A stretch of DNA of 64,000 nucleotides from assembly GCA_028688325.1 (NCBI GenBank), contig JAQTYI010000003.1, positions 32,116 to 96,115 on the forward strand, read 5' to 3'. Each line of letters starts with the position of its first letter. Position 1 is the first letter of the stretch. The DNA comes from Candidatus Portnoybacteria bacterium. GTDB taxonomy: Bacteria > Patescibacteriota > Minisyncoccia > Portnoybacterales > GWB1-42-6. Both the position numbers and the translations under genes were made by a program. Below are positions 1 through 48,016 of the stretch, in pieces. Below the pieces are notes generated by a model, which was not told where the DNA came from, made no database searches, and saw only the letters and a program-made list of their open reading frames with translations.

Positions 1-363
1 CCGATTATTCCAGTTGGTTCATCGCTTTCCGCTTCTTCCACAAGTTTCGTTAAAAAATCCGACCCAACCGTTGTGTCATTATTCAGCAATAGAACATAAT
101 CCGCGCCTTTTTCCATCGCCAACTTTATTCCTTGATTATTTGCTCCGGCAAAGCCGAGGTTTTTATCGTTCTGTATTTGCGTAATTTTTAGATTCCGGGT
201 CGAGCCCGGAATGACAAAAGGAGACGGCATCAGCTCTTTAGACGCATTATCTATCAACACAACCTCAAAATTATCGTATTCCACCCGGCTCAAAGATTCC
301 AGACACTCTTTTGTGTCCGGCCAGCCATTGAAATTGACGATGATGATAAATACTTTTTTCTTC
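1..363 (-). CDS. Glycosyltransferase family 2 (N-terminal part; gene continues beyond window start)
   Basis: Reverse-strand translation from ATG at 363 gives MKKKVFIIIVNFNGWPDTKECLESL...VLIDNAS...NLGFAGANNQG, classic GT2 motifs. It is absent from the ORF track because no stop lies in the window. It carries an in-frame palindromic repeat at 191-217. Confidence 0.7.
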
Positions 364-384: not shown

Positions 385-448
385 TGTCATCCTGAGCGAA
401 GCGAAGGATCTTTAATAGATTTTTCGCCCTACGGGCTCAGAATGACAA
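385..448. repeat. Palindromic MITE-like element, family B (tgtcatcctgagcgaagcgaaggatc...gggctcagaatgacaa)
   Basis: Inverted termini gtcatcctgagc / gctcagaatgac. Related copies or half-copies at 5981-6072, 7248-7275, 7618-7645, 23571-23601, 31633-31715, 19947-19968. Confidence 0.7.
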
Positions 449-457
449 AATAATAAA

Positions 458-745
458 TCAGTCCTTAAAATCCAATAAATCCTTAAATTCCGGGTTTTTG
501 ATTTTTATCAATTCTATTTTTTTGTTTCTAATCCAACCTTTTATTTTCTTTTCGGCGCATATCGCATCTTCCGGATTATTAAAAACCTCATAAAAAACTA
601 ATTTATTAACTTTATATTTTTTAGTAAATCCCGGCGTTAAACCGTTCTTATGCTCATACATTCTCCTATACAAATTATTTGTGATGCCCGTATATAAAAC
701 AGAGTTTGTATAATTGGTAGCAATGTATATATAATAATTTTTCAT
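458..745 (-). CDS. GIY-YIG nuclease family small protein
   Basis: YIYIATN...VLYTGITNNLYRRMYEHK block typical of the GIY-YIG catalytic domain. Stand-alone, 95 aa. Confidence 0.8.
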   Translation of the reverse strand: MKNYYIYIATNYTNSVLYTGITNNLYRRMYEHKNGLTPGFTKKYKVNKLVFYEVFNNPEDAICAEKKIKGWIRNKKIELIKIKNPEFKDLLDFKD

Positions 746-784
746 AGATTCTTCGGGTTTTGCCCTCAGAATAACACTTCTTTG

Positions 785-3515: not shown

Positions 3516-3819
3516 GGCGAGACATTGTCTAACCCAAATTAAAAACAAAAAAACAGCAAAAAACTATTGCTGTTGCGGCGGCTGCGTATTGTCTGTGCCG
3601 GTTGAAGGCGAAGAGCTCGGCGGCATTGTCTTGCCGTTCTCCTCCTTCATCGCCCACCAGATTACTCCTCCTATGATAACCAACGCGATGATGGCAAAAA
3701 ACCACATCATAAGGGTTATTTAGAATTACACTTTGAGTATATCCGACCCTGGCAAAAACGCAAGGCCTCCGTGTTTTGCTGCTGTGGACAACTCCCGGCT
3801 CAAGATATAATTTTAAAAA

Positions 3820-3915
3820 TTATAAAATTTTCCCAGCGCGAAAATTTTACTCGCCAGTTTTGCTCGCTCTCCGCCCAGGACGGAACCGTGCCCGCTCACA
3901 AAACTGAGCGTTTTT
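3820..3915. repeat. Structured repeat family 6, inverted copy
   Basis: Reverse complement matches the cores of 6702-6858 and 36107-36270 (aaacgctcagttttg...gcaaaactggcgagt.aaattttc). Confidence 0.55.
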
Positions 3916-3919
3916 AAAA

Positions 3920-5263
3920 TCAATCCCTCGCCTTCTGTTTTAAAACTACTAATTCGGTAAGCTTATAAACATCCCCCGCGCCCATAATCACGCAAATGTC
4001 GCCCGGCTGAAGATTTTTACGCAAATATTCCGCTGCCTCATCAAAATTAGACGCGTAAATAATATTTTCCGATTTACCCTGATCCTGCAGGCGAAGGGCT
4101 AATTTTTCCGAGCTCACTTTTTGCCTGATATCGTCTTTTTCCCTCCCCGTCGCGCTGTAAATCGGTAAAATAATTGTTTTATCTGCCGCGCCGAACGCGC
4201 CGACAAATTGGTCAAAAAAATCGTAAGTGCGCTGGTATTGGTGCGGCTGAAAAACGCACCAGAGTTTCCCTCCCCACTTTGTAAAAGGGGGGTCGGGGGG
4301 GATTTTTTTCAATAGCTCCCGCGCCCCCTCCAGCGTCGCTTTTATTTCTGTCGGATGATGGCCGTAATCATCATAAATTTTGGCGCCATTTAATTCACCT
4401 TTATACTCCATGCGCCGCCAAGCGCCGGTAAATTCATTTAGCGCTTCAACGGCAATTTTTTCATCAATGCCCAAAACTTTCGCCACGGCCAGCGCCGCGT
4501 TGGCATTGGAAACATTATGCTTGCCGGGAATTTTCAGATTCAGTTTTAGCTTATTTTCCGAGCTATATTTTTCAACGCGTAGTTTAAGATCCGCGCTTAT
4601 GAGCTTGGCAACATTTTCGTCTTCGCCATTTACAACTAAGATTCCGTCTTCCGGCAAATGCAAAATATATTCGCCGAAAGTTTCCATGATCTCGGGCAAG
4701 CCGCCTTTATAGGTATCCAGGTGCTCTTCCTCAATATTCAGCAGCACCAAAATCTTCGGCCAATAATTCAAAAACGACTTATCATATTCGTCCGCTTCTA
4801 TCACCAGATACTTACTTGTTCCCGGTCTGAAGTTGCTATTGCCCCACTCTTTGAGTTTCGTGCCCAAGATCACCGTCGGGTCCAGCCCGGCTTTCTCCAT
4901 CATCAAACCGATCATTGCCGTCGTTGTGCTTTTGCCGTGCATGCCGGAAACGGCAATTGTGTATTTTTCACGCGTCAGATCACCCAATGCCGCGGCATAT
5001 TTTTGCGTTTTCACGCCAAGCCGCCTGGCTTCAACCAATTCCGGATTATCCTCTTGCACCGCCGCACTAAATATCACGCAGTCCGACTGCGTGATATTTA
5101 GTGCTTTATGGCCGATGTAAATTTTTACGCCCAACTTTCTCAATTCCGCTACTGTTTCGTTTTTCACCGCGTCCGATCCGCTCACTTCGTCCCCTTGCGC
5201 CAAAAAATACCGCGCCAAGGCGGAAACGCCGATTCCTCCGATACCGATAAAATGAATTCTCAT
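3920..5263 (-). CDS. murC: UDP-N-acetylmuramate--L-alanine ligase
   Basis: MRIHFIGIGGIGVSALA...GMHGKSTTTAMIGL Mur-ligase motifs. A family C repeat lies in-frame at 4266-4304 (FTKWGGKLW). Confidence 0.9.
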   Translation of the reverse strand: MRIHFIGIGGIGVSALARYFLAQGDEVSGSDAVKNETVAELRKLGVKIYIGHKALNITQSDCVIFSAAVQEDNPELVEARRLGVKTQKYAAALGDLTREKYTIAVSGMHGKSTTTAMIGLMMEKAGLDPTVILGTKLKEWGNSNFRPGTSKYLVIEADEYDKSFLNYWPKILVLLNIEEEHLDTYKGGLPEIMETFGEYILHLPEDGILVVNGEDENVAKLISADLKLRVEKYSSENKLKLNLKIPGKHNVSNANAALAVAKVLGIDEKIAVEALNEFTGAWRRMEYKGELNGAKIYDDYGHHPTEIKATLEGARELLKKIPPDPPFTKWGGKLWCVFQPHQYQRTYDFFDQFVGAFGAADKTIILPIYSATGREKDDIRQKVSSEKLALRLQDQGKSENIIYASNFDEAAEYLRKNLQPGDICVIMGAGDVYKLTELVVLKQKARD

Positions 5264-5985
5264 AAAAATTTTTCCTTAATAATCAACCAAGAAAAAACTA
5301 CCACCGACCGCCAGGTTTTGCGCCATTGGCTGGGTTGAACAAATAACCGCCAGAGCCACTCCAGCCCTATTTTTTGTACCATTTTTGGCGCGCGGCGCTT
5401 TCGGCCGGAAATGAAATCAAATGTCCCGCCGACGCCGATGGCGACTTTCACGACTGGCATTTTCTTAAGATTATCATAAATCCACTTTTCTTGCTTTGGC
5501 ATTCCCAGAGCGACCAGCAAAATGGCCGCTCCGCTGCGATTGATAGCGCTTATCGCCTCTTCATCGGCGACATACCCGTTTATCGTGCCGGCAATTTTCG
5601 CCTGCGGCACTTTTTGCAAAATATTTTTTACCGCCCCTTGCGCCACCCCTTCTTTGGCGCCGAATAAAAATATGCCATGTTGCGCGCCAAATTTTGCAAA
5701 AAGCGCAAAAACCAGGTCCACGCCCATCACTCTGCTCTTCAATTTCTCGCCGCCTGAAATATAAGACGCGATTACCGGCCCGACACCGTCAGATAAGCTT
5801 AAATCCGCTTTATTTAAAATTTCTTTTAATTTTTCGTCCTTTTGCGCCTGGACCAGAAAATCAGAATACGGTAAAACGATATGATGCTGCCGACCGTCGG
5901 ACAAAAATCCGCTTATCTTTTTCAGCGATTCCCCAAGATTCAGATTGTCTATTTTTACGCCAAGTAAATACAATCCAGTGGTCAT
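5260..5985 (-). CDS. tagA: WecB/TagA/CpsF family glycosyltransferase (N-acetylmannosaminyltransferase-like)
   Basis: C-terminal GLEWLWRLFVQPSQWRK signature of Glyco_tran_WecB. 4-nt overlap with the murC stop. Confidence 0.8.
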   Translation of the reverse strand: MTTGLYLLGVKIDNLNLGESLKKISGFLSDGRQHHIVLPYSDFLVQAQKDEKLKEILNKADLSLSDGVGPVIASYISGGEKLKSRVMGVDLVFALFAKFGAQHGIFLFGAKEGVAQGAVKNILQKVPQAKIAGTINGYVADEEAISAINRSGAAILLVALGMPKQEKWIYDNLKKMPVVKVAIGVGGTFDFISGRKRRAPKMVQKIGLEWLWRLFVQPSQWRKTWRSVVVFSWLIIKEKFL

Positions 5986-6072
5986 CCTGAGGCCGCAGGC
6001 CGAAGGATCTGAAAGATTCTTCGCTTCCCCCTTCGCTAAAGCTTCGGGGGGACAAGTCGCTCAGAATGACAA
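5981..6072. repeat. Family B palindromic element, full copy
   Basis: gtcatcctgagg...gctcagaatgacaa termini between the tagA-like gene and thpR. Confidence 0.65.
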
Positions 6073-6080
6073 TTCTATAT

Positions 6081-6653
6081 TTATTCGTCTACTCCCAGCG
6101 GACAGCTTTCCAGCGTCGCGTATTCGGCGCCGTCAAATTTCAGATCGCTTTCCATAACCTCGATGCTTTTAACTTCAAATTGTACCTTAAAATCCTGTTC
6201 AACATCCGCCGGATTGATTTGCGCTTCTTTCCATTGCTCCATTTTCAACCGCGCCAGAGTGATATGCGGGCTAAACGGCCTGTTCTCAACCTTCCGGAGC
6301 CCCGCATTTTTGCTAAGAAGAGCTTCTTCCAGGGCTTTTTTTAATTCATCCAATTCCGGGTTTTTTTCCGCTTCAAGCCAAATCATTCTGGAAGCTTTAT
6401 CTTTCGGACCTAAGGCGATGCGTTTGAAATTAATGAAAAACGGATCGGCTTTGCCCGCCACCTCGCGCGCTATTTTGCACGCCTCCAGCATCTGTTCATT
6501 GTCAACATAACCGATAAATACCAGCGTCAAATGCAAACTTGCCAATTTTGTCCATCGCGCGGGAAGATAATCAAATTTTTCCTGATATTCTTTCAAGCGT
6601 TTTCGGACTTTTTCTGACAAGTTTATGGCGATAAAAATTCTCTTTTTAGTCAT
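6081..6653 (-). CDS. thpR: RNA 2',3'-cyclic phosphodiesterase (2H phosphoesterase, LigT/ThpR)
   Basis: Two H-x-T-x motifs (HLTLVFIG and HITLARL) about 80 aa apart. Confidence 0.8.
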   Translation of the reverse strand: MTKKRIFIAINLSEKVRKRLKEYQEKFDYLPARWTKLASLHLTLVFIGYVDNEQMLEACKIAREVAGKADPFFINFKRIALGPKDKASRMIWLEAEKNPELDELKKALEEALLSKNAGLRKVENRPFSPHITLARLKMEQWKEAQINPADVEQDFKVQFEVKSIEVMESDLKFDGAEYATLESCPLGVDE

Positions 6654-6701
6654 ATTCTTTATTATCTCTGTGTTTTTACCCGTGCATACGGAAAATTTTA
6701 A

Positions 6702-6858
6702 TTAGACCGGGAGCGAGGATTTACTTTTCTGAAACGCTCAGTTTTGCTTGCTTTCTCTGTTCGCCGCGGCGAACAGAGAAAGCAAGCAAAACTGCGTGAG
6801 TGAAATTTTCTACGCTGGGGAAAATTTCACGATTTCAGGAAGCAAATCCGAGTAATCC
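6702..6858. repeat. Structured repeat family 6 (long imperfect hairpin)
   Basis: ttagaccgggagcgaggatttacttt.ctgaaacgctcagttttgc...gcaaaactgcgtgagtgaaattttc...gatttcaggaagcaaatccgagtaatcc. Near-identical copy at 36107-36270. Confidence 0.6.
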
Positions 6859-6903
6859 TATATTTGCTATATTATCACAGCCAATGCTAAAATCAAACAA
6901 AAC

Positions 6904-8958
6904 ATGCGCCTTTTTGATATCATACCGCTCGCCAGAATTCCCGCCGCCTTGCCTCAAGTTTTGAGCTATTTTTCCGGCCAAAATCTACCAAACGGCGCTT
7001 TGGTCCAAATCCCTTTAGGTAGAAGAAAAGAAGAAGGCGTTGTTGTGGGCGCGCATGACATTGCCGATTACAAAATGGAAATAAAAAGCGCGGATTTTGA
7101 ATTGCGCAATATCAGCAAAATACTTTCGGCAAAACCCGTCTTAACGGCTAAACAAATTGAACTGGCTTTATTTCTGGGCCAATATTATTTTTGCTCACCG
7201 GGAATTTTTATCAAAATGTGTTTGCCGCCAAAAAACACCCTTATTCGTCATTCTGAGCGAAGCGAAGAATCTCTCGCGAATGCGAGGCCCAAAAAACAAA
7301 CCTTAATTCTCGCCCCAACAATAGCCCAAGCTGAAAAAATCTCCACTGGCTATAAAAACGCGGTTTTATGGCACAGCGGCCTTAAAAACAAGCAATTAAA
7401 AGAATCCTGGCAAAAAATTAAAACCGGCCAAGTGCAAACAATAATCGGCACTCGCTCAGCCGTTTTTTTGCCTTTTAACGGCCTGAAAGAAATTATCATT
7501 GAAGACGAGACAAACCCCAACCATAAGTCCTGGGATATGTTTCCTCATTATGACAGCCATATAATCGCGCAGAAGCTGGCGGAAATTTTTAGATGCAAAG
7601 TAATCTATAAAGATTTCGGTCATCCTGAACGAAGTGAGGGATCTAAAAAAGATTCTTCGGCTAATAAATCTCACGCAGTCAGAGTGCGTGAATTCAAACC
7701 GACTATTGTTGATATGAGAGAGGAACTTAAAGACGGAAATTTTTCCATTTTCAGCGTTGATCTTTACGAAGCCGCCAAAGACGCTTTGGCCGAAAATAAG
7801 CAAGTTATCTTATTCATAAACCGTCGCGGCGCGGCGAATTTCGTTCTGTGCCGCGACTGCGGTTATGTCGCCAACTGCCCAAATTGCGATTCCCCGATGG
7901 CATATCATCTGATAAACAATAGGCCTTCTTTATTTTGCCATCATTGCGGCGCCAAAGATATCCTTCCTAAACTTTGCCCCAAGTGCAAAAACTGGCGCAT
8001 CAAAACCGTGGGCTCTGGCTCCCAAAAAGTTGAAGCGGAAACAAAAAAATTCTTTCCGGACGCCAAAATTTCGCGCCTGGACAGCGACAGCGCGCCAAAG
8101 CCCAAAGACCAGCAAAAAATCATTGCTGATTTTATTGATAAGAAAATCGATGTCTTGATAACCACCCAGATAATTTTTTCCTGGCTGGAAGAACTGGCCG
8201 CGGCAAAACCGCAAGTTGTGGGAATATTATCAGCCGACACGCTTTTGCATCTGCCTGATTTCCGTTCGGGCGAACAGACATTTCAGACAATACGAGCATT
8301 ACAATCTTTACAAAATAACGCCCCCCGACCCGCAGCAGCGGGTCTTCCCCCTCTTAAATTAAGAGGGGGCGAGGGGGAGTTATCACAAAACAATTTCATC
8401 ATCCAAACCTACAACCCGGAAAATTCCGTCTTAAAATATATCCGCGATAATGACCGCAAGGGTTTTATCCAAGAAGAAAATGAAACCCGCCAGGCGTTGA
8501 ATTACCCGCCATTCTCGCAAATCGTTAAGCTAACCTTCCGACATCGTGATGCCGACAAAGCCGGGCAAGAAGCAAAAATTTTAGCGGCTAAACTAAATAA
8601 TGCTCTGCCCTCCCTTTCTGTCATTCCCGCCCCGCATCAAGTGCGGGGTAAACTGGAGACGGGAATCCAGGCCCTGACTCTTGAATCTGGATCCCGGGTC
8701 AAGCCCGGGATGACAAATAACAAGTACGCTGATAACATAGAAATATCCACCGCCCTGCCCGCCTTCAATCCGCGCTCGCGCGGAAAATTCGTTTGGAATA
8801 TAATAATAAAATTTCTTTCGGCTGCGGCTCCCTCCTTTTCCAAAGGAGGGTTGGGGAGGATTTTTACTACCTCCGAATTCCTTCAAAAAAGAAACTCTGT
8901 CTTGCAATATGTCCCGCAAAATTGGGAAATAGATGTAGATCCTGAAAATCTATTATGA
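6904..8958 (+). CDS. priA: Primosomal protein N' (PriA-like), apparently lacking the Walker A P-loop; carries five in-frame palindromic repeat insertions
   Basis: 3'BD-like N-terminus. LILAPTIAQAEK block (PriA motif Ia equivalent). CRDCGYVANCPNCDSPMAYH...LFCHHCG...CPKC zinc-binding region. DVLITTQII motif. No GxGKT found where expected. Repeat-encoded segments HSERSEESL, GHPERSEGS, PPLKLRGGEGE, IPAPHQVRGKLET...GSRVKPGMT, SKGGLGRI. Confidence 0.75.
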   Translation: MRLFDIIPLARIPAALPQVLSYFSGQNLPNGALVQIPLGRRKEEGVVVGAHDIADYKMEIKSADFELRNISKILSAKPVLTAKQIELALFLGQYYFCSPGIFIKMCLPPKNTLIRHSERSEESLANARPKKQTLILAPTIAQAEKISTGYKNAVLWHSGLKNKQLKESWQKIKTGQVQTIIGTRSAVFLPFNGLKEIIIEDETNPNHKSWDMFPHYDSHIIAQKLAEIFRCKVIYKDFGHPERSEGSKKDSSANKSHAVRVREFKPTIVDMREELKDGNFSIFSVDLYEAAKDALAENKQVILFINRRGAANFVLCRDCGYVANCPNCDSPMAYHLINNRPSLFCHHCGAKDILPKLCPKCKNWRIKTVGSGSQKVEAETKKFFPDAKISRLDSDSAPKPKDQQKIIADFIDKKIDVLITTQIIFSWLEELAAAKPQVVGILSADTLLHLPDFRSGEQTFQTIRALQSLQNNAPRPAAAGLPPLKLRGGEGELSQNNFIIQTYNPENSVLKYIRDNDRKGFIQEENETRQALNYPPFSQIVKLTFRHRDADKAGQEAKILAAKLNNALPSLSVIPAPHQVRGKLETGIQALTLESGSRVKPGMTNNKYADNIEISTALPAFNPRSRGKFVWNIIIKFLSAAAPSFSKGGLGRIFTTSEFLQKRNSVLQYVPQNWEIDVDPENLL
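8619..8716. repeat. Family A palindromic element (tgtcattcccgcccc...ggatcccgggtcaagcccgggatgacaa), full copy inside priA
   Basis: Near-identical copies at 9923-10030 and 12823-12920; short forms at 28852-28882, 47986-48016, 18784-18844, 191-217. Confidence 0.7.
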
Positions 8959-9922: not shown

Positions 9923-10030
9923 TTGTCATTCCCGCCCCCGCTTCGCGAGGATAAACTTCAGCGGGAATCCAGGACTTTATCGTACCGAATTTATTCAGGA
10001 CCTGGATCCCGGGTCAAGCCCGGGATGACA
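9923..10030. repeat. Family A palindromic element, full copy
   Basis: tgtcattcccgcccccgcttcgcgagg...ggatcccgggtcaagcccgggatgaca. Confidence 0.7.
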
Positions 10031-12750: not shown

Positions 12751-12822
12751 AATCCTCCAATTACGAATTTATTTTTATCTATTCTGTTTATTCCGCGCAT
12801 ACGAAAAACTTTACACCTTCTT

Positions 12823-12920
12823 TGTCATTTCCGCCCCACATCAAGTGCGGGGTAAACTGGAGACGGGAATCTAGGCCTTAACCCCTGAATCTGGATCCCG
12901 GGTCAAGCCCGGGATGACAA
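12823..12920. repeat. Family A palindromic element, full copy
   Basis: Nearly identical to 8619-8716. Confidence 0.7.
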
Positions 12921-13008: not shown

Positions 13009-14142
13009 TTATTGTTCTATTTCTCTTCTTAAACCTTCTAACAACTCCTTAGCTTTTTTAGACAAGTGCTTGGGTGTTTTTATCTTCACTTTCACTATCA
13101 TATCACCCGCTCCTCGCCGCTGCAAACGAGGCATACCCCTGCCCTCCAATTGAATATTGGTGCCGCTTTCCACGCCTTCAGGAATTTTCAGCTTAACCCA
13201 GCCGGCCAGCGTCGGCACTTCAATTTTGTCGCCCAAAGCCGCTTGAGAAAAAGAAATCTGCAAATTGTAGAACAGGTCGTCGCCCTCTCGCGAAAATCGC
13301 GGATCGGGCCGAACATGCACCGTTACATATAAATCCCCTGCTGGCGCGCCGTACGGGCCCGCCTCACCCTGACCGGCCAAACTGATAACCTGCCCGTCGC
13401 TGATGCCCGCGGGAATTTTAACCCTCAATGACTTGCTTTCTTTTATCCTGCCTTCTCCGCCGCATTTTGAACAAGCTTTATCGGGCTTCTTACCGCTGCC
13501 GTGGCATGCGGGGCATATCACTACTTGGGAAAAATTGAAAAATCCGTTGCCGCTGCGCTGTTCAACCTGGCCCGCGCCTTTGCAGGTCGGGCAGGTTTTC
13601 AGTTTTGAACCCGGTTCCGCTCCGTTGCCCGAGCACCTGTCGCAAACTACGGCCCGCCGCAAATTTATTTCCTTGTCCATTCCCCTAAAAGCATCTTCCA
13701 GGGATATTTCCACATCCACACCAATATTTTGCCTCCGGCTGCTCCTTGCACTTCTGCCCCGTCCGCTGCCGCCAAATATACCCTCAAAGATATCTTCAAA
13801 TCCGCCGCCATTTCTGTTGTTGTTGCTATTGCCGCCTTGACCGAAATTAAACGCCTCGGCAAAAGAGGAAAAATCACGGAAGCCCTCAAAACCGGGCGCA
13901 CCGCCCCGGGCCTGCGCTTGTTCGAAAGTGGAGCCGAACCGGTCATATTGGCTTTTTTTCTGCGGATCGGATAGGACTTGGTAGGCCTCGTTCACTTCCT
14001 TGAATTTTTCCTGGTCGCCGCCCTTGTCCGGATGGTGTTGCTGCGCCAAGCGCCGATAAGCCCGCTTGATCTCATCAGGCGAGGCGGTCTTTAAAACATC
14101 AAGAATTTTATAATAATCTTTGGACACAAAATTAATAACCAA
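13009..14142 (-). CDS. dnaJ: Molecular chaperone DnaJ
   Basis: J-domain with HPD (YYKILDV...HHPDK), Gly-rich linker, four CxxCxGxG zinc-finger repeats, C-terminal domain. Confidence 0.9.
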
Positions 14143-14262
14143 TCACCAAGATACAAGATACAAACAAATTGCAATAATCAAATTTAAAAAGTTCAAACCG
14201 GTTTGATTATTGAATTTTGGGATTTGAAATTTGTTTGGTTATTGTATCTTGGTTATTGTCTC

Positions 14263-15102
14263 TTATATCTCTAAAATTTCCCTTTCCGCCGCCACTTTAT
14301 TTATTTTAACCACTCCGCTCCACAACAGCGCTCGGAATACCAGCCAGGCAAAAAGCATCATCGCCCAGGAAAGAAAAGTGCCGATAACCTTAAGGCCGAA
14401 AAATATGCTGACTGAAGCCCCCAACGGCAACCATTTTTTAGACGACCGGCCGGCTGCGCTTATTTCTTCATTCATTGAAAAATATATCTTATCTAAAACC
14501 TCCGCTTTTTGTTTTTTAAACTCCGGAGTCGGTTTTAAATCTGTCTTTTGCGGCGAACTTATACCCAAGGCCAGATCGGCTGCCGGACCGGCAATAGCAT
14601 CGAACAAAGGCCGGGGCACAGAAATATTGCCTCCCAGCGACTGGGTGAATGGCGTAAAATAAAAAAGCAAGGTAACGAGCAACGCCAGGCCCGTGATCAT
14701 CGGCGCCAGGCCTTTTCGGAGAATTATCCCGGAAATGAACTTTATCCGCAGTGTCTTTTCAAAATGGCTGCGATAAGCCGCCAGAATAAAAAATATTATC
14801 GCGCCGGCCAGCACGAGCATAGTTGCCAAGCCCGGTTTCAAAAAAACCAAAACCGGCAAGATTATCGCCGCCGGCATGCCGTATAAAAACAGCTCGTCGC
14901 TTTCAACAAGGAAAAATAATCCCGCGCAAATTCCCAAAGCCATCAAAAAAACCAAAGACCAAATTGATCTTACTATCCAATCGGGGCTGTCGCTTAACGC
15001 GTTCGTCAATGTCGCCCAAAATAAAAACGAAAAAACCAGGATTAAAACTCCCAACGCCGAATGTACGATAATTTTCTTGTTCACCCCGCTAGAATTTTCC
15101 AC
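14263..15102 (-). CDS. Hypothetical membrane protein within the heat-shock operon
   Basis: Multiple transmembrane segments; lies between dnaK and dnaJ. Confidence 0.5.
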   Translation of the reverse strand: MENSSGVNKKIIVHSALGVLILVFSFLFWATLTNALSDSPDWIVRSIWSLVFLMALGICAGLFFLVESDELFLYGMPAAIILPVLVFLKPGLATMLVLAGAIIFFILAAYRSHFEKTLRIKFISGIILRKGLAPMITGLALLVTLLFYFTPFTQSLGGNISVPRPLFDAIAGPAADLALGISSPQKTDLKPTPEFKKQKAEVLDKIYFSMNEEISAAGRSSKKWLPLGASVSIFFGLKVIGTFLSWAMMLFAWLVFRALLWSGVVKINKVAAEREILEI

Positions 15103-17099: not shown

Positions 17100-17245
17100 A
17101 CTTTTTTAAAAATCCAAATTACCAAATCCCAATGACCAATCAATGACCAAGCCCTAAATCCCAAAAATTCATTTTGACATTGGGATTTGGGATTTTATTG
17201 GTCATTGGAAATTTGACATTTGATATTTATTTATATTTTTTAAAT
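17100..17245. repeat. AT-rich extended imperfect palindrome, family D (aatcccaa/ttgggatt, atgaccaa/ttggtcat units)
   Basis: Related hairpin clusters at 14143-14262, 20883-20945, 23455-23570, 25025-25150, 51185-51350, all intergenic. Confidence 0.55.
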
Positions 17246-17836
17246 TTATTTACTCACCTTCACTTTCGCCGCTCTTATAATTTTTCCATTTAATAAATAT
17301 CCCTTCTGCACTTCCTCCACGACCGCGCCTTCGCCGACATCCTTCGCTTCCACACACTCAACAGCTTCATGCAGCGCCGGATCGAATTTTTCACCAACCG
17401 CCTTCATCTCCATTAAGCCGTGTTTCGATAAAATCTTCATTAATTGGTCGCGTACAATTTTTAAACCCTCTACTCCTCCCTTTGAATTTAACCCCTCTTC
17501 GCCACCCTTTAAAAGGGGGGTTGGGGGGTTAGAACTTTTTTCCCCGCGCTCCTGCGCTGCTGAAGCGTCTAAAGTATCCAGCACGGGCAGCAAATCCCTC
17601 AATAGCCCTTCCCCGAACATCTTGCTCCACTCGCCCATCTGCTCTTCCTGGCGCCGCCTGTAATTTATAAAATCCGCCTGCGCCCGCTGCCAGCCCGCCA
17701 GATTATCCTGTTTTTCTTTCTGGCACTGCTCCAGTTTTTCTTTCATCTTTCCCAGCTTGTCTTTCATATCAACCGCGGCACTTTCGTTGTTTTCTTCTTC
17801 GTAATTTATATCTCGGCCTTTTTCTTCTTTATCCAT
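17246..17836 (-). CDS. grpE: Nucleotide exchange factor GrpE
   Basis: LAGWQRAQADFINYRRR motif and C-terminal beta domain. In-frame family C repeat at 17474-17535 (PTPLLKGGEEGLNSKGG). Confidence 0.85.
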   Translation of the reverse strand: MDKEEKGRDINYEEENNESAAVDMKDKLGKMKEKLEQCQKEKQDNLAGWQRAQADFINYRRRQEEQMGEWSKMFGEGLLRDLLPVLDTLDASAAQERGEKSSNPPTPLLKGGEEGLNSKGGVEGLKIVRDQLMKILSKHGLMEMKAVGEKFDPALHEAVECVEAKDVGEGAVVEEVQKGYLLNGKIIRAAKVKVSK

Positions 17837-17837
17837 A

Positions 17838-18050
17838 TATATTGGTATTTTTTACGCGCATGCGAAAAATTTTGCTATGAATTCGCGATGAGTTGAGCGT
17901 TAAAAAATTGCGTGCTGTGGTGGGGCCCCGATCGTCAGGTCGGGGCGTTGTGGATAGCAATTTTAGCGAAACGAATCCGAATTTATCAAAATTTTATCGC
18001 CGCGCGGCGGTTTTTTCCGCCGCTTTTTTGCCGCCAAAAAAGCGGCAAAA
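17838..18050. repeat. Repeat family 5 (about 190 bp) between hrcA and grpE
   Basis: cgcgcatgcgaaaaatttt...gcgtgctgtggtggggccccgatcgtcaggtcggggcgttgtggatagcaattttagcga... Second copy at 32238-32420. Confidence 0.65.
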
Positions 18051-18783: not shown

Positions 18784-18844
18784 GTTGTCGTCCTGAGCTT
18801 GTTTCAGGACCTTAGAGATGCCGAAACAAGTTCGGCATGACAAA
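18784..18844. repeat. Palindromic element (ttgtcgtcctgagcttgtttcaggacc...ggcatgacaaa), family A/B relative
   Basis: Inverted termini gtcgtcctgag / ttcggcatgacaa with internal hairpin. Confidence 0.5.
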
Positions 18845-18881: not shown

Positions 18882-18962
18882 AATCATTCTATTACCACCT
18901 AAAACCTTTGTCAACTCCCCTCTTTTGTAAAAAGGGGCTGGGGGAGAAGATTTAGTTGGCAT

Positions 18963-19100
18963 CCGATGTCCAAAATATTAAAGACCCCGCACCCAGGACA
19001 TCGGATGTCCTAATATTGAATTTAATCTGCTGACATCCGACAACTTAAAATTCAGAATTCTTTAATATTCGGGTTGTCGGATGTCAATACTGGCAAAATA
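18963..19100. repeat. About 140-bp repeat, family E (gacatccgacaac.taaaattcagaattctttaatattcgggttgtcgga.gtcaa)
   Basis: Second copy at 20945-21100; internal palindrome ttgtcggatgtc/gacatccgacaa. Confidence 0.65.
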
Positions 19101-20882: not shown

Positions 20883-20944
20883 AAAGGACAAATGACAAAA
20901 TCCCAATGACCAAGCCCAAAATCACAAATAATCCCTTTTGACAT

Positions 20945-21100
20945 TTGGATTTGGGATTTTTTTGACATCCGACATCCCAAATATTAAGCACCCCGCATTC
21001 CGGATGTCGGATGTCCCGATATTAATTTTAATATGGCGATGTCCGACAACCTAAAATTCAGAATTCTTTAATATTCGGGTTGTCGGACATCAAAACCCTT
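20945..21100. repeat. Family E repeat, second copy
   Basis: Homologous to 18963-19100; overlaps the first 13 codons of the tracked cysS ORF. Confidence 0.65.
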
Positions 21101-23454: not shown

Positions 23455-23570
23455 TGTCTAAATCCTAATGCCTAATGACAAATGAAAAGCTTAATGCCCA
23501 ATTTCCAATCATTGAGGAATTGGTCATTTCATTAGACATTAGTCATTAGAGATTGGTCATTAAGTACAAA
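23455..23570. repeat. Family D AT-rich hairpin cluster
   Basis: aatgacaaatgaaaagc...ttggtcatttcattagacattagtcattag palindromic units. Confidence 0.5.
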
Positions 23571-23611
23571 TTCTTCGGCCTGCGGGGTCAGAATGACAAA
23601 TAAACTATAAT

Positions 23612-24973: not shown

Positions 24974-25163
24974 CAATTTTGACCAGCTGATAATTATGTT
25001 GCTATTTTGAATGAGGTTAAGAATCTATTTATTTAATGACAAATGACAAAATCCCAATGACCAATAAATGTCCAAGCCCAAAATCCTAAAAGATTTTTTG
25101 ACATTAGGATTTGGGATTTTATTTGACATTGGAAATTAGAAATTTGTCATTTAAATAACCTTA

Positions 25164-25766: not shown

Positions 25767-25773
25767 ATTAAAT

Positions 25774-25850
25774 CCTCCCCAGCCCTCCCTTACAAAAGGA
25801 GGGGGACGAATTTGATTCCTCCCTTTCGTAAAGGGAGGTTAGGAGGGATT
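25774..25850. repeat. Family C element, two tandem units (cctcccc.gccctcccttacaaaaggagggggacg; ttcctccctttcgtaaagggaggttaggagggatt)
   Basis: GGGAGG-type hairpins. Other copies at 4266-4304, 8343-8382, 8829-8864, 17474-17535, 18914-18950, 33999-34035. Confidence 0.65.
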
Positions 25851-25871
25851 TAGTTTCATTTTTGTTCCCAA

Positions 25872-28851: not shown

Positions 28852-28882
28852 TTGTCATCCCGAACTTGTTTCGGGATGACAA
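28852..28882. repeat. Family A short perfect palindrome (ttgtcatcccgaacttgtttcgggatgacaa)
   Basis: 31-bp near-perfect palindrome just upstream of the rplU start. Confidence 0.7.
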
Positions 28883-31445: not shown

Positions 31446-32237
31446 TTAACACTTTTTCTTATAGATTAACAGCAACAGAGAAATAGAGAAAATTACTACT
31501 GCTATCCACTGGCTCACGCTCAAAATCCCCCAGCGAGGGTCGGCTAGGGGGCCGGAGGAAACGCGAATGAATTCAAGGAAAAAACGGATGGCGGAATAAG
31601 AAATTAGGAATAATAAAAAGAATAGACCATCTGTCATCGTGAGCCCCGCAGGGGCGTGGCGATCCCGCGATACTGCCGCGTCCACGGAATTGCTTCGTTC
31701 CGCTCGCAATGACATATTTTTTATTTTTTTCTGTAAAAACCAAAACACTGCCAACAACCCGAACCCGACCAGCGATTCATATATCCCCATCGGATGGCGC
31801 GAAATGCCGTCCGGCCATAAAATTCCCCAGGGTAAATTTGTCGGCGCGCCCTGGTGGTCGTTGATTAAAATACAGCCGATGCGGCCAATGCCAATTCCCA
31901 GCGCCATCGGTAGAACAAACAAATCGGCTGTTTTCCAAAAAGGTATTTTGGCCTTTTCCATATACGCCCACCCAAACAATATCGCGCCGATCAATCCACC
32001 CATAAAAGCGGCTCCGCCGCCCGCGGTTAACCGCGCCAGAACCCACGCGCCCGATATTGCGCCAAAAAAAATCGCGACGGCCAGGCCCGCGATTTTTTTT
32101 GGCGCCAGATTTTCTTTCCGGGCCAAGTAATAAAACAATAGATATCCAACGCTAAACCCCAGCCCCGCGAACAAACCCCAGATATAAAGCTTTACGGGAC
32201 CAAGAGAGATTTGATTAATAACAAAATACGGTATCAT
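31446..32237 (-). CDS. lgt: Prolipoprotein diacylglyceryl transferase
   Basis: IGPVKLYIWG...GIGIGRIGCILINDHQG Lgt signature. Start moved to MIPYF (32237). In-frame family B insertion at 31633-31715. Confidence 0.85.
   Translation of the reverse strand: MIPYFVINQISLGPVKLYIWGLFAGLGFSVGYLLFYYLARKENLAPKKIAGLAVAIFFGAISGAWVLARLTAGGGAAFMGGLIGAILFGWAYMEKAKIPFWKTADLFVLPMALGIGIGRIGCILINDHQGAPTNLPWGILWPDGISRHPMGIYESLVGFGLLAVFWFLQKKIKNMSLRAERSNSVDAAVSRDRHAPAGLTMTDGLFFLLFLISYSAIRFFLEFIRVSSGPLADPRWGILSVSQWIAVVIFSISLLLLIYKKKC
31633..31715. repeat. Family B-like palindromic element inside lgt
   Basis: tgtcatcgtgagccccgcaggggcg...cgctcgcaatgaca; encodes RAERSNSVDAAVSRDRHAPAGLTMTD within Lgt. Confidence 0.6.
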
Positions 32238-32420
32238 AAATCCAAGACCGCGCATACGAAAAATTTTGATAGAAAATAGCAATGAGCCGAGCGTCTAAAT
32301 TTGCGTGCTGTGGCGGGGCCCCGACCGTCAGGTCGGGGCGTTGAGGATAGCAAATTTAGCGAGGCGAGTTCTATTTTCTCAAAATTTTATCGTCGCGCGG
32401 GAACTCTTTTGCTACTTTTC
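32238..32420. repeat. Repeat family 5, second copy
   Basis: ccgcgcatacgaaaaattttgatag...gcgtgctgtggcggggccccgaccgtcaggtcggggcgttgaggatagcaaatttagcga... Confidence 0.65.
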
Positions 32421-33974: not shown

Positions 33975-34121
33975 AATAAACTGAAAATATAATAAATTAC
34001 TCCTCCCTTTTGTAAAGAGAGGGCAGGAGGGATTTAAGAAGCTTTCTAAATCCACCCTAACCCTCTCGCCTCGCTAAAGCTATGGCGAAGCGGGCCCTTA
34101 TAAAAGGAGGGAACAAATCCC

Positions 34122-34794: not shown

Positions 34795-36093
34795 TCAGCG
34801 GCTCTCCCATTCTTCTCCCTGGCGCACCAGCAATTCCTTGGCTCGTTCCGGCTCAGCCATCAGTTCTTTGACTATTTTTTCCATGCGCATACCTTGAGAT
34901 CCTTTTACCAATATTATATCCCCTTCTTTTATCATGTCCTGCAATTCGCGTCCCGCATCTTCGGAGTCGGCAAAATACCAAGCTCTTTCCTGCGCCAAGC
35001 CGTTTTTTTTGGCCTCATCGGCCATAAAAATTGACTTTTCTCCAACCGCCAGCAGAATATCCGCCGCCTTGGCCACATTGGCGCCGATCTTCCGGTGCGC
35101 TTCTTCCGAAAAAGCGCCTAATTCCAGCATATCGCCGAGTGCGGCGATTTTACGGCCGGGTTCTCCGTCAGTGCGCAAATTGGACATTCTCCCCAGCAAT
35201 TCCAGCGCCTTCAAAGAAGAGCTGGGTGAAGAGTTGTAAGTATCGTCAATTATCCAGGTTTTTTTTATGCCGCGAAGCAGGCGCAAGCGGCCGGGATACG
35301 GCGTAATACTTTTAAGCGCCTGGGCGATTTCCACCAGGTTCAATTTAAAAATCAAACCCACGGCCATACCCGCCAAAACCGCGTAAACTTGATGCTGCGC
35401 GCAAAGGCCGGATAAGCGAACCGGAACATTACTGCCCTGGTAATCGACCTTAAAAGACATTCCCACATCGCTTAAGTCGTCCAATCTCTGCTCAAAATTG
35501 GAGGCGCGTAAATCGGCTTTTTCATCAAAACCGTAGGTAAAAATTTGCGCCGGAGTTTTGCGCGCCATGGCGCGCACGCGCTGGTCGTCGTAATTTAAGA
35601 CCGCCCAGCCGCCCTTGTCCAGACCGCGCACCAGATTCGCTTTTTCTTTGGCCACTTGGTCCGCGCCCTGGAAGAATTCAACATGCACAGGAATCTCTCC
35701 GATGGCGGTGATGACGCCCACATGGCATTTGATGAAATCCGTCAGATATGCGATATCGCCCATCTTATCGGCGCCCATCTCCAAAACCAAGATTTTGGGA
35801 TAGTTTTTGGCATATAAAATTTCAAAAAAACCTATCAAAAGCGTTTGCAGCCATCGCCAAACGGAATCGCCGCAACTGATCTGGCCCAAAATGGTAAGCG
35901 GCGCACCGATTTCATTGTTGTAATTTTTAATATTGCGGCGCACGCCGAATTTTTCTTTCAAAACCGCGTAGATGGCTTCTTTGGCGGCGGTTTTACCAAC
36001 GCTGCCGGTCACGCCAATGACCAGGGGCTTATAACGCCACAATGTGGCCCGGGCAAGAATTTTTAAAATAAAGCAAAGAATTTTTTTGGGCAT
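34795..36093 (-). CDS. murF: UDP-N-acetylmuramoyl-tripeptide--D-alanyl-D-alanine ligase
   Basis: VIGVTGSVGKTAAKEAIYAVL and Mur ligase middle/C domains; start taken at MPKKILCF. Confidence 0.9.
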   Translation of the reverse strand: MPKKILCFILKILARATLWRYKPLVIGVTGSVGKTAAKEAIYAVLKEKFGVRRNIKNYNNEIGAPLTILGQISCGDSVWRWLQTLLIGFFEILYAKNYPKILVLEMGADKMGDIAYLTDFIKCHVGVITAIGEIPVHVEFFQGADQVAKEKANLVRGLDKGGWAVLNYDDQRVRAMARKTPAQIFTYGFDEKADLRASNFEQRLDDLSDVGMSFKVDYQGSNVPVRLSGLCAQHQVYAVLAGMAVGLIFKLNLVEIAQALKSITPYPGRLRLLRGIKKTWIIDDTYNSSPSSSLKALELLGRMSNLRTDGEPGRKIAALGDMLELGAFSEEAHRKIGANVAKAADILLAVGEKSIFMADEAKKNGLAQERAWYFADSEDAGRELQDMIKEGDIILVKGSQGMRMEKIVKELMAEPERAKELLVRQGEEWESR

Positions 36094-36106
36094 ACGATTA
36101 TTCTGA

Positions 36107-36270
36107 TTAGACCGAGAGCGAGGATTTACTTTCCTGAAACGCTCAGTTTTGCAAGCGGGCACGGTGTCCCGACTTTATGGAGGGACGAGCGAGCAAAACT
36201 GGCGAGTGAAATTTTCCTGGCTGGGGAAAATTTTACGATTTCAGAAAGTAAGTCCGAGCGATTATTTACT
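36107..36270. repeat. Structured repeat family 6, copy 2
   Basis: ttagaccgagagcgaggatttactttcctgaaacgctcagttttgc...gcaaaactggcgagtgaaattttcctggctggggaaaattttacgatttcagaaagtaagtccgagcg. Confidence 0.6.
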
Positions 36271-43378: not shown

Positions 43379-43619
43379 TTTTAATAAAAAACGCCTCTTC
43401 AGGCGCATTAACGATAAGCCATTCGTCGTTTATCCCGAACTTGCTCGCCTCGCTGAAGCTTTAGCGAAGCGGGTCAAGGGACGATCAGCTACCTTCCGCC
43501 TGGGCAGGATTTATACTGACTTGCTCATTGGAGTTTATCCCGAGCTTGTCGAGGGACCTGCTTTCTTGGGCTCGTATTCTATTAGTTACATCTTACTCTC
43601 TTACCTGAAATTGTCAAGG

Positions 43620-47985: not shown

Positions 47986-48016
47986 TTGTCATCCCGCACT
48001 TGACCCGGAATGACAA
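47986..48016. repeat. Family A short palindrome (ttgtcatcccgcacttgacccggaatgacaa)
   Basis: Intergenic between the two GT4 genes. Confidence 0.65.

Follow-up and report, generated by a model that had tools for sequence, protein, structure and literature searches.

Palindromic repeats in frame within core genes of a Portnoybacteria genome, and a GIY-YIG nuclease gene associated with them

Palindromic repeats that lie in frame inside bacterial genes are already described. In-frame Rickettsia palindromic elements (RPEs) were reported by Ogata et al. (2000, 2002; as outlined in PMC10969869 and PMC3733652), and repetitive extragenic palindromes (REPs) are found inside genes of DNA synthesis and repair (Di Nocera et al. 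2013, PMC3733652). In-frame insertion is therefore a phenomenon of a known kind. Here we describe small hairpin-forming repeats in a 64,000-nt stretch of a Candidatus Portnoybacteria contig (JAQTYI010000003.1; hereafter the window, meaning the whole stretch analyzed). Nine copies lie within genes, five of them in priA, and one group of repeats carries the tag GTCAT and flanks a gene encoding a GIY-YIG nuclease.

The window elements resemble RPEs in being small palindromic repeats of a reduced genome that occur in several families and lie in frame in unrelated housekeeping genes, where the extra peptides are compatible with the fold. Each is an in-frame palindromic repeat that adds a tolerated peptide to a functional open reading frame (ORF), and the parallel with RPEs drawn in the original prediction is upheld by the in-frame, tolerated and lineage-specific character of the inserts. 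However, the elements fall outside the Rickettsia RPE families, as judged from the Portnoybacteria host and the GTCAT tag rather than by alignment. The host of RPEs is Rickettsia, whereas the present one belongs to the Patescibacteria or candidate phyla radiation (CPR), and the RPE-4 and RPE-6 repeats carry a CGTC tag. RPE-1 is about 150 nt long, compared with units of 27–105 nt here. Additionally, a single 684-aa protein carries five inserts, its loops are reused by different families, and there is a candidate partner nuclease, whereas none is known for the CGTC repeats.

REPs, the doublets known as REPINs and their RAYT transposases (PMC3733652; Bertels and Rainey, PMC3116915) share with the GTCAT elements a short hairpin that bears a conserved 5' tag, an arrangement in inverted doublets, and the absence of target-site duplication. 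In both, the partner gene is flanked by repeats and can be single-copy and vertically inherited, and some copies lie inside replication and repair genes. The GTCAT elements are thus hairpin doublets of the REP/REPIN kind; however, the REP tag is GTAG or CGTC, and PMC3733652 contains neither GTCAT nor GIY. RAYTs are HUH tyrosine transposases, whereas the gene flanked here encodes a hydrolytic Slx1-like GIY-YIG nuclease and hence not a RAYT. As in RAYT systems, the enzyme might bind and cleave a single-stranded hairpin at the tag, to judge from recurrent breakpoints after GTCATYCTGA. REPIN-RAYT systems are described as mostly inherited vertically within lineages (10.1101/2022.05.22.493013). In contrast to that lineage-bound pattern, an exact 25-nt core of the GTCAT elements crosses phyla.

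Miniature transposable elements of the inverted-repeat type (MITEs; Correia/NEMIS, ERIC, RUP, Nezha) are likewise bounded by terminal inverted repeats, are short non-coding forms of a longer gene-bearing form, and occasionally form in-frame fusions with host ORFs (PMC10969869). The window elements differ in that each arm is itself a covarying hairpin and the long form carries a nuclease instead of a transposase. The parallel with Correia-type repeats that had been proposed fails on target-site duplications, none of which was found in 126 elements of the B type described below.

The nuclease resembles stand-alone Slx1-like or UPF0213 proteins such as BH0048 and EF2693, which consist of a minimal catalytic GIY-YIG domain without an auxiliary domain; the flanking arms are a new context for them. 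A 2006 survey of the GIY-YIG superfamily (PMC1564403) lists this family without an assigned function, does not mention palindromes or inverted repeats, and notes an HsdR gene that has recently received an Slx1-like domain by insertion. The catalytic domain is also shared with homing endonucleases of the I-TevI and Seg type; however, neither their appended DNA-binding domain nor their residence in introns or phage intergenic sites is found here. Nothing relevant emerged from literature searches on the element sequences, on MITEs in Patescibacteria or on palindromic elements in CPR bacteria, nor from searches pairing GIY-YIG with COG2827/YhbQ/UPF0213, REP, REPIN or RAYT. What appears to be new is the presence of these families in CPR bacteria, the five inserts in one protein, the reuse of loops by different families, and the partnership of a GTCAT tag with a GIY-YIG gene.

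In-frame segments in priA and four other genes

The 684-aa product of positions 6904–8958 is 100% identical to an annotated primosomal protein N' on a 788,852-bp contig of a Candidatus Portnoybacteria metagenome-assembled genome (MAG). Pfam supports the identities of PriA, MurC, GrpE, Lgt, the partial GT2 protein and their neighbors, and about 84% of the window is coding according to a crude gene call (~63 genes). The original prediction placed insertions in these five genes, and all nine are found to be in frame and free of stop codons. Fold z scores below are relative to shuffled sequences, and pLDDT is the per-residue confidence of the AlphaFold model.

6904–8958, plus strand: priA host gene; 684 aa, intact ORF with PriA domains and five repeat-derived segments
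7247–7290, plus strand: priA site 1; aa 115–129, RHSERSEESLANARP; single B-type GTCAT module and a small hairpin, no right arm; pLDDT below 50 at 116–123
7619–7694, plus strand: priA site 2; aa 239–264, GHPERSEGSKKDSSANKSHAVRVRE; decayed B-type doublet of left arm, spacer and degenerate right arm; pLDDT below 50 at 239–261
8317–8388, plus strand: priA site 3; aa 472–495, ...PRPAAAGLPPLKLRGGEGELSQ; 72-nt composite C-type double hairpin, z −6.7
8620–8714, plus strand: priA site 4; aa 573–604, VIPAPHQVRGKLETGIQALTLESGSRVKPGMT; 95-nt A-type doublet, z −4.0
8825–8865, plus strand: priA site 5; aa 641–654, APSFSKGGLGRIF; C-type hairpin
4272–4301, minus strand: murC insert; aa 321–331, IPPDPPFTKW; clean 30-nt C-type unit
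17474–17535, minus strand: grpE insert; aa ~101–121, SSNPPTPLLKGGEEGLNSKGG; C-type
31633–31713, minus strand: lgt insert; aa 190–217, MSLRAERSNSVDAAVSRDRHAPAGLTMT; decayed 81-nt GTCAT doublet whose right arm is an ATTGC/GCAAT stem variant
191–215, minus strand: single A-like module (GTCATTCCGGGCTCGACCCGGAATC) in the partial GT2 gene, encoding FVIPGSTRNL

We compared PriA in an alignment of 30 protein sequences (A1) and at the DNA level with two ~83%-identical relatives, L001 and L002 (A2). All five sites are indels relative to orthologs at both levels, and in the 30-sequence alignment all five are indel hot spots. The nearest homologs (77–78% identical) have no insert at sites 1–3 and a different element peptide at site 4. 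The site 1 insert is also present in the homologs P0004 and P0005. Site 3 is a clean 72-nt indel relative to L001 and L002, flanked by ACAAAATAA and ACAAAACAA; the empty sites hold a single copy, which would make this one possible 9-nt duplication, associated with a C-type element. In other lineages the same loop is occupied by a B-type peptide (CHPERSERS) in one case and an A-type peptide (VIPAQAGIQGSGSRVKPGMT) in another. At site 4 the window, L001 and L002 share the element termini (GTCAT...CGGGATGACAAATAACAAG) and differ in the interior, which is B-type in the relatives. In many homologs site 5 holds low-complexity peptides (IENLKLKI; IFNFQFSM in L001).

The AlphaFold model of PriA has a mean pLDDT of 75, and its only long stretches below 50 are at 116–123, 239–261, 474–494, 572–609 and 641–653. 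These coincide with the five inserts, none of which contains secondary structure. The inserts are therefore predicted to be disordered loops, in line with the surface-loop location that the original prediction had proposed to check. At its repeat segments priA reads DFGHPERSEGS and IRHSERSEES, and LKLRGGEGELSQ is an example of a peptide predicted from the sequence to span an insert. The peptide SFCHPERSEGS, which had been listed as encoded by a gene, is instead a conceptual translation of an intergenic copy (379–411).

The murC insert is missing from the 80%-identical L001 ortholog and faces a gap in the solved structure of Haemophilus influenzae MurC. The L001 gene (1891–3354) in turn carries two repeat-derived inserts that the window gene lacks, STPELPHPSPLLEKERGQK and a 40-aa segment (PSPLKGEGE...PFEKGGENY). 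As each of these ~80%-identical orthologs has private inserts, turnover runs both ways. The grpE insert is missing in 8 of the 19 orthologs compared and faces a gap in solved GrpE. The lgt insert is missing in five orthologs and lies in a hypervariable loop; a sequence search of Lgt against solved structures gave no match. Other orthologs of both grpE and lgt carry different element peptides at the insert site. The GT2 module lies inside an unbroken Pfam GT2 match. The eight inserts compared (those in priA, murC, grpE and lgt) are all missing from close orthologs or swapped there for another element, the outcome the original prediction had anticipated from ortholog alignments. Over 11.5 kb of synteny with L001 (~83% identical), the coding indels are all net multiples of three, whereas most intergenic indels are not (53, 212, 65, 43, 52 and 32 nt, compared with 12, 30, 30 and 54 nt). 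Taken at the sequence level, these comparisons support the segments as lineage-specific in-frame insertions of small palindromic repeats.

The host genes are not pseudogenes, the outcome that would have undermined the original prediction. Neither priA nor murC contains an internal stop, and their dN/dS values relative to L001 (0.18 and 0.14) are at the upper end of the range of neighboring genes (0.02–0.15); as read from these comparisons, we consider it confirmed that the genes are intact and under purifying selection. That they are essential is an assumption. PriA belongs to a clade without ATPase motifs. The window PriA has the Pfam domains PF17764, PF18319 and PF18074 (the 3'-DNA-binding domain, the Cys-rich zinc region and the C-terminal domain) and matches solved PriA structures (E 2.5e-43). 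However, the superfamily-2 motifs (Walker A GSGKT, DExH, and motif VI GRxGR) are absent from it and from all aligned homologs (n = 29) except the most distant, P0119. EDET replaces DEEH throughout the clade (the window protein and P0001–P0097), and in a list of 120 matching proteins PF00270 is found only in homologs of ~42% identity or less. The zinc cysteines, the 3'-binding domain and the C-terminal domain are kept. The clade may thus represent an ATPase-dead PriA, possibly a mere assembly platform. That one gene carries five inserts may reflect a relaxation of constraint in its helicase lobes.

The GTCAT-tagged modules and other repeat families

The original prediction recognized three families, A, B and C. 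Pattern scans allowing up to three mismatches place them where it had, with 3 matches to the B core (at 386, 7247 and 7619), 4 to the A right arm and 11 to a degenerate C-type pattern, compared with 0–0.05 expected from shuffled sequence. The 11 overlapping C-type matches represent 6 separate loci, and the grpE and priA site 3 copies escape the pattern; a repeat search recovers all three families, with 7 C-type copies. Three copies of the A-type right arm are 100% identical across 29 nt, with a further copy in GT2, and 8612–8716 in priA is 90% identical to intergenic 12816–12920 across 105 nt. Coding and intergenic copies at unrelated sites thus share 90–100% of their sequence.

The families are real repeats, but A and B are not separate: with the lgt copy they form one superfamily of GTCAT-tagged hairpin modules, usually in inverted, REPIN-like pairs, as their common layout indicates. 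Family C and a 30-nt family are distinct from it, and the window contains at least six repeat families, more than the two or three first proposed. The original prediction had also missed the unity of A, B and lgt, the wide distribution of the B core, and the nuclease cassette in the same window.

In each GTCAT module, (T)GTC is followed by a 5-bp outer stem and GA, then by an inner hairpin of variable sequence (often GCGAAGC), a second GA, the complement of the stem, and C; elements are usually two such modules in inverted orientation. Full copies are multi-hairpin folds closed by a TGTCAT/ATGACA stem (z −3.6 to −8.6), whereas the priA site 1 and lgt copies fold no better than shuffled sequences (z about −0.5). 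An Rfam scan of the whole window (E ≤ 1) assigned no family to any element and returned only tRNAs and chance matches. Among 175 modules chosen independently of the core sequence, Watson-Crick pairing is seen in 171 for one free outer-stem pair and in 172 for the other, and the closing pair of the inner hairpin is G-C in 128 and A-T in 28. Variant stems also pair: all five positions are complementary in 160 modules, compared with 4 in a shifted control. These variants include ATTGC/GCAAT (in one lgt arm), ACCCT/AGGGT, and the A-like ATCCC/GGGAT. The inner sequences GCGAAGC, GCGTAGC and GCGCAGC fit the d(GCGNAGC) mini-hairpins, which we take to be exceptionally stable.

Flanking direct repeats around the 126 B-type elements are no commoner than in shuffled pairings. 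The flanks show a preference for T at −1 (104/126) and A at +1 (94/126). There is no signal of concerted evolution between the two arms, whose identity is 0.44 within elements and 0.40 between elements; each arm therefore behaves as an independent hairpin.

Species-representative genomes contain the exact 25-nt B core in at least 120 stretches, with hosts that include Acidobacteriota, Chloroflexota, Nitrospirota, Bacteroidota, Bacillota, Gemmatimonadota, Verrucomicrobiota, Planctomycetota, Cyanobacteria and Patescibacteria. The B core is thus pan-bacterial. Unlike B, the C-type is not, with a single match in 1.06 Mb of loci from other phyla.

The intergenic copies in the window are as follows.

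386–446, plus strand: B-type doublet, 61 nt, z −4.3; also the downstream arm region of the GIY-YIG cassette
5981–6070, plus strand: B-type doublet with a nested 30-nt E-type hairpin (6027–6056); its first 5 nt overlap the wecG start codon
9925–10029, plus strand: A-type doublet, 105 nt, downstream of fmt, z −3.6
12824–12918, plus strand: A-type doublet, 95 nt, 90% identical to the priA site 4 copy
28854–28880, no strand assigned: perfect minimal GTCAT palindrome, 27 nt, z −8.6; a second at 47988–48014
23569–23597, minus strand: solo GTCAT module; another at 18818–18843
25770–25852, no strand assigned: inverted pair of C-type hairpins directly after recR; further intergenic C copies at 18917–18946 and 34001–34036

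GTCAT-type and C-type units range from 27 to 105 nt. Nine of 22 element loci (41%) are in coding DNA (5 of 14 GTCAT-type and 4 of 8 C-type), far below the ~84% expected from random placement, and many of the intergenic copies lie directly downstream of genes. The B module is open in four of its six frames on direct reading of the sequence. The relatives have diverged too far in their intergenic DNA for the empty site of the 9925–10029 element to be defined.

Several further observations concern individual copies and other repeats. The ATG of wecG (5260–5985, minus strand) is part of the ATGAC end of a GTCAT element (5981–5985), which may have supplied or shifted the annotated start. The 30-nt hairpin unit (CCCNCCTYCGCWAAWGCTNCGGNGGGCAAR) is found in L001 at ~4705 (ligT) and ~8662 (intergenic) and in the window at 6027–6056 and 43444–43473. 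Its indels are exactly 30 nt long, show no duplication and occur in coding as well as non-coding DNA; one copy is nested in a B module. The murC C-type insert is likewise exactly 30 nt, and the length of the 30-nt unit preserves a reading frame even outside coding DNA. The gap between ligT and priA contains 212 nt (6651–6862) missing from L001, with a perfect 28+28-nt palindrome at 6739–6794; this stretch is apparently another, larger family with related copies at 36090–36258 and 3817–3913. AT-rich periodic repeats (CAAATGACAAAATCCCAATGACCAA...) make up long, imperfect palindromes in intergenic DNA at 14133–14265, 17110–17230, 20884–20964 and 25035–25154, and the low-complexity peptides at PriA site 5 are possibly related to them. 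Two additional intergenic families have two copies each at 82–88% identity, one of 142 nt (18949–19090 and 20955–21096) and one of ~104–153 nt (17855–18007 and 32249–32400).

A GIY-YIG nuclease gene between GTCAT arms

Near the start of the window a nuclease gene is enclosed by GTCAT arms, forming a cassette (386–775) that consists of an upstream arm, the ORF, and the 61-nt doublet listed above (386–446) downstream.

461–745, minus strand: GIY-YIG nuclease gene; 95 aa, Slx1-like (PF01541, E 4e-17), flanked by GTCAT arms
747–775, minus strand: upstream cassette arm, GTTATTCTGAGGGCAAAACCCGAAGAATC, ending 1 nt before the nuclease ATG

The protein is a catalytic domain only, with no appended DNA-binding domain. 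The positions of Tyr, Arg, His and Glu are invariant in an alignment of the family (A4), whose profile matches the solved structures 1zg2 (BH0048, E 1.7e-8) and 1ywl (EF2693, E 5.8e-6), both of which have been placed in the Slx1 family (Dunin-Horkawicz et al. 2006, PMC1564403). The window protein has no NCBIfam model. The exact protein is on record at one genomic place only, and tblastn detected no further GIY-YIG copy in the window. A Logan contig of the same organism stops just past the gene, and the repeat is probably what broke it.

At E ≤ 1e-3 the family counts 11,619 representatives (clusters at 50% identity). Phages (1 of 50,697 records) and plasmids (34 of 72,556 records) rarely carry a member of it, and over-extended ORF calls in the family read through the arms. 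We assembled 80 unrelated metagenomic loci through the protein alone. A left arm lies within 200 nt upstream of the gene in 48, a right arm within 250 nt downstream in 48, and both are present in 38, compared with a background arm-motif density of 0.29 per kb. When variant stems are counted, 74 of the 80 have an arm, with the nuclease gene between or beside such arms. Conversely, all three nuclease-bearing loci among the 120 listed loci selected by the core have the gene within ~120 nt of that core. Element lengths are bimodal, at 60–120 nt without an ORF and 320–430 nt with one. A typical cassette reads arm, ~5–30 nt, ORF, ~5–40 nt, arm, and a cultured Planktothrix plasmid has the identical layout. 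The association of hairpin arms with the GIY-YIG gene is thus shown, and we infer that the partner enzyme of the GTCAT elements is this ~90-aa Slx1-like nuclease.

Rearrangements within the elements appear to share a breakpoint. In one orthologous cassette locus an element without an ORF is inserted exactly after GTCATCCTGAGC of the left arm, and across 10 loci there are 12 tandem duplications of a flank plus GTCATYCTGA. Together with the interior swap at priA site 4, these point to recurrent breaking and rejoining at the junction of the outer stem and inner hairpin.

Among eight orthologous loci (L133, L134, L135, L143, L147, L151, L153 and L180) the flanks are 84–94% identical and the nuclease gene 78–87%; two have an extra ORF-less element inside the left arm. 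Tandem arrays of ~10 nt of flank plus GTCATYCTGA precede a full element in L004, L020, L029, L033, L040, L112, L162, L185, L189 and L203 (680–745). They span several phyla and the Planktothrix plasmid (period 22), and the breakpoint is always right after GTCATYCTGA.

Origin of the inserts and its implications

We consider it likely, with a probability of roughly 80%, that the segments are selfish hairpin-forming DNA repeats that landed in genes and survived selection, with the nuclease as the presumed partner of the GTCAT type. A genic copy would persist only if its net length is a multiple of three, its frame is free of stops, and it falls in a tolerant surface loop; the remaining genic insertions would be purged, which would explain the 41% coding share in a window that is ~84% coding. 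Few loops would be permissive, and new elements would enter, or recombine with, those already resident. The PriA, Lgt, GrpE and MurC loops hold different elements in different lineages, with fast turnover, as would follow from such scarcity and from insertion or recombination of one element into another. Coding copies would later decay and lose their hairpins. Folded modules could be recognized by the nuclease and cut close to where GTCATYCTGA ends, the breaks being repaired by copying from other elements.

A broader proposal is that the GTCAT modules and the enclosed gene constitute a pan-bacterial, undescribed REPIN/RAYT-like system in which the population of palindromic repeats is driven or maintained by a structure-specific hydrolytic nuclease in place of an HUH transposase. 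The large UPF0213/YhbQ-type family would thereby gain a first function, and in CPR bacteria such a system, with other hairpin families, would write new disordered loops into core proteins. We regard this proposal as tentative, at somewhat less than even odds.

Several points weigh against these readings. To our knowledge GIY-YIG enzymes hydrolyze DNA and cannot carry out strand transfer, so the arrival of elements at new sites without flanking homology is left unexplained. The nuclease gene is present in only 3 of the 120 listed loci selected by the element, and no partner gene was found for the C-type, which accounts for four of the nine coding inserts. The nucleases show no clustering according to the stem type of their arms (p = 0.27), and one lineage carries the gene in a conserved, apparently vertically inherited locus; a simple model of co-evolution is weakened by both. 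Nuclease activity and transposition of the elements are proposals drawn from sequence, the translation of the inserts is deduced from frame and stop constraints, and the tally of coding and intergenic loci covers one 64-kb window with crude gene calls.

Some of these points would suit a nuclease gene that is a passenger, a free-standing homing-type gene targeting the loops of pre-existing GTCAT palindromes as multi-copy landing pads, with the palindromes spread by other means or by replication slippage. The gene is always in the spacer between arms, the arms would provide short homology for repair-mediated copying, ORF-less elements far outnumber genes, and the proteins do not co-cluster with arm type. 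Insertion sequences (ISs) are known to target REPs (PMC1525189). However, the protein has just the ~90-aa catalytic domain and none of the domains through which true GIY-YIG homing endonucleases bind DNA sequence-specifically (PMC1564403), its single conserved locus in one lineage is more like a domesticated RAYT-type partner, and the spread of the palindromes would still be unexplained; a passenger gene is thus an unlikely account, if the least unlikely of the alternatives. We consider it improbable that the elements are classical MITEs, IS deletion derivatives that a DDE transposase from elsewhere in the genome mobilizes in trans. Terminal inverted repeats with TG...CA ends, lengths between 27 and 105 nt, and the priA site 3 insert between ACAAAATAA and ACAAAACAA with its single copy at empty sites would fit, but the 126 B-type elements lack target-site duplications and the 30-nt units insert cleanly without any. 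Additionally, no transposase was recognized among the 20 window proteins scanned against Pfam (of ~63 called genes), and the 320–430-nt long form encodes the GIY-YIG nuclease only.

Exaptation of the in-gene hairpins or peptides, as mRNA or DNA structures tuning the expression of priA, grpE and murC or as protein linkers, seems to us comparably improbable. Many intergenic copies do follow closely downstream of a gene, a position in which REPs are considered to work as RNA elements (PMC3733652), and some inserts are common to related lineages (priA site 1 in P0004 and P0005). However, presence is patchy even among 70–80% identical orthologs, one loop is occupied by different families, coding copies lose their fold, and the segments are predicted to be disordered. 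The window does derive from a MAG, and the contigs of relatives break at repeats, as might be expected if the segments were assembly artefacts or ancestral variable linkers deleted in relatives. Yet the same sequences recur at unrelated intergenic sites (90–100% identity) and across phyla, independent JGI, ENA, Logan and NCBI assemblies show the same type of insert, and the indels are clean at the DNA level; this explanation is already largely refuted and very improbable. Equally hard to credit is the removal of the elements before the protein is made, in the manner of introns or inteins, which would make the frame irrelevant. Strong hairpins might suggest it, but all nine inserts are in frame and stop-free, and coding indels are all multiples of three while most intergenic ones are not, a constraint that spliced elements would not show. 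No Rfam intron or ribozyme matches and no intein motifs were found.

The genomes of CPR bacteria are deemed streamlined, and yet nine repeat copies lie within genes of replication, cell-wall synthesis, chaperone function and lipoprotein processing. Selfish DNA can thus make lineage-specific protein loops even in tiny genomes, and repeats may underlie much of the variation in length seen among CPR orthologs. The 25-nt core and the peptides HPERSEGS, VILSEAKDL, LRMT and AQDD can serve as flags for spurious ORFs and mis-extended gene calls. The cross-phylum link between hairpins and nuclease suggests a testable function for a family with over 11,000 representatives at 50% identity. Should the nuclease be the partner enzyme, populations of REP-like repeats would arise by a second route that differs in mechanism.

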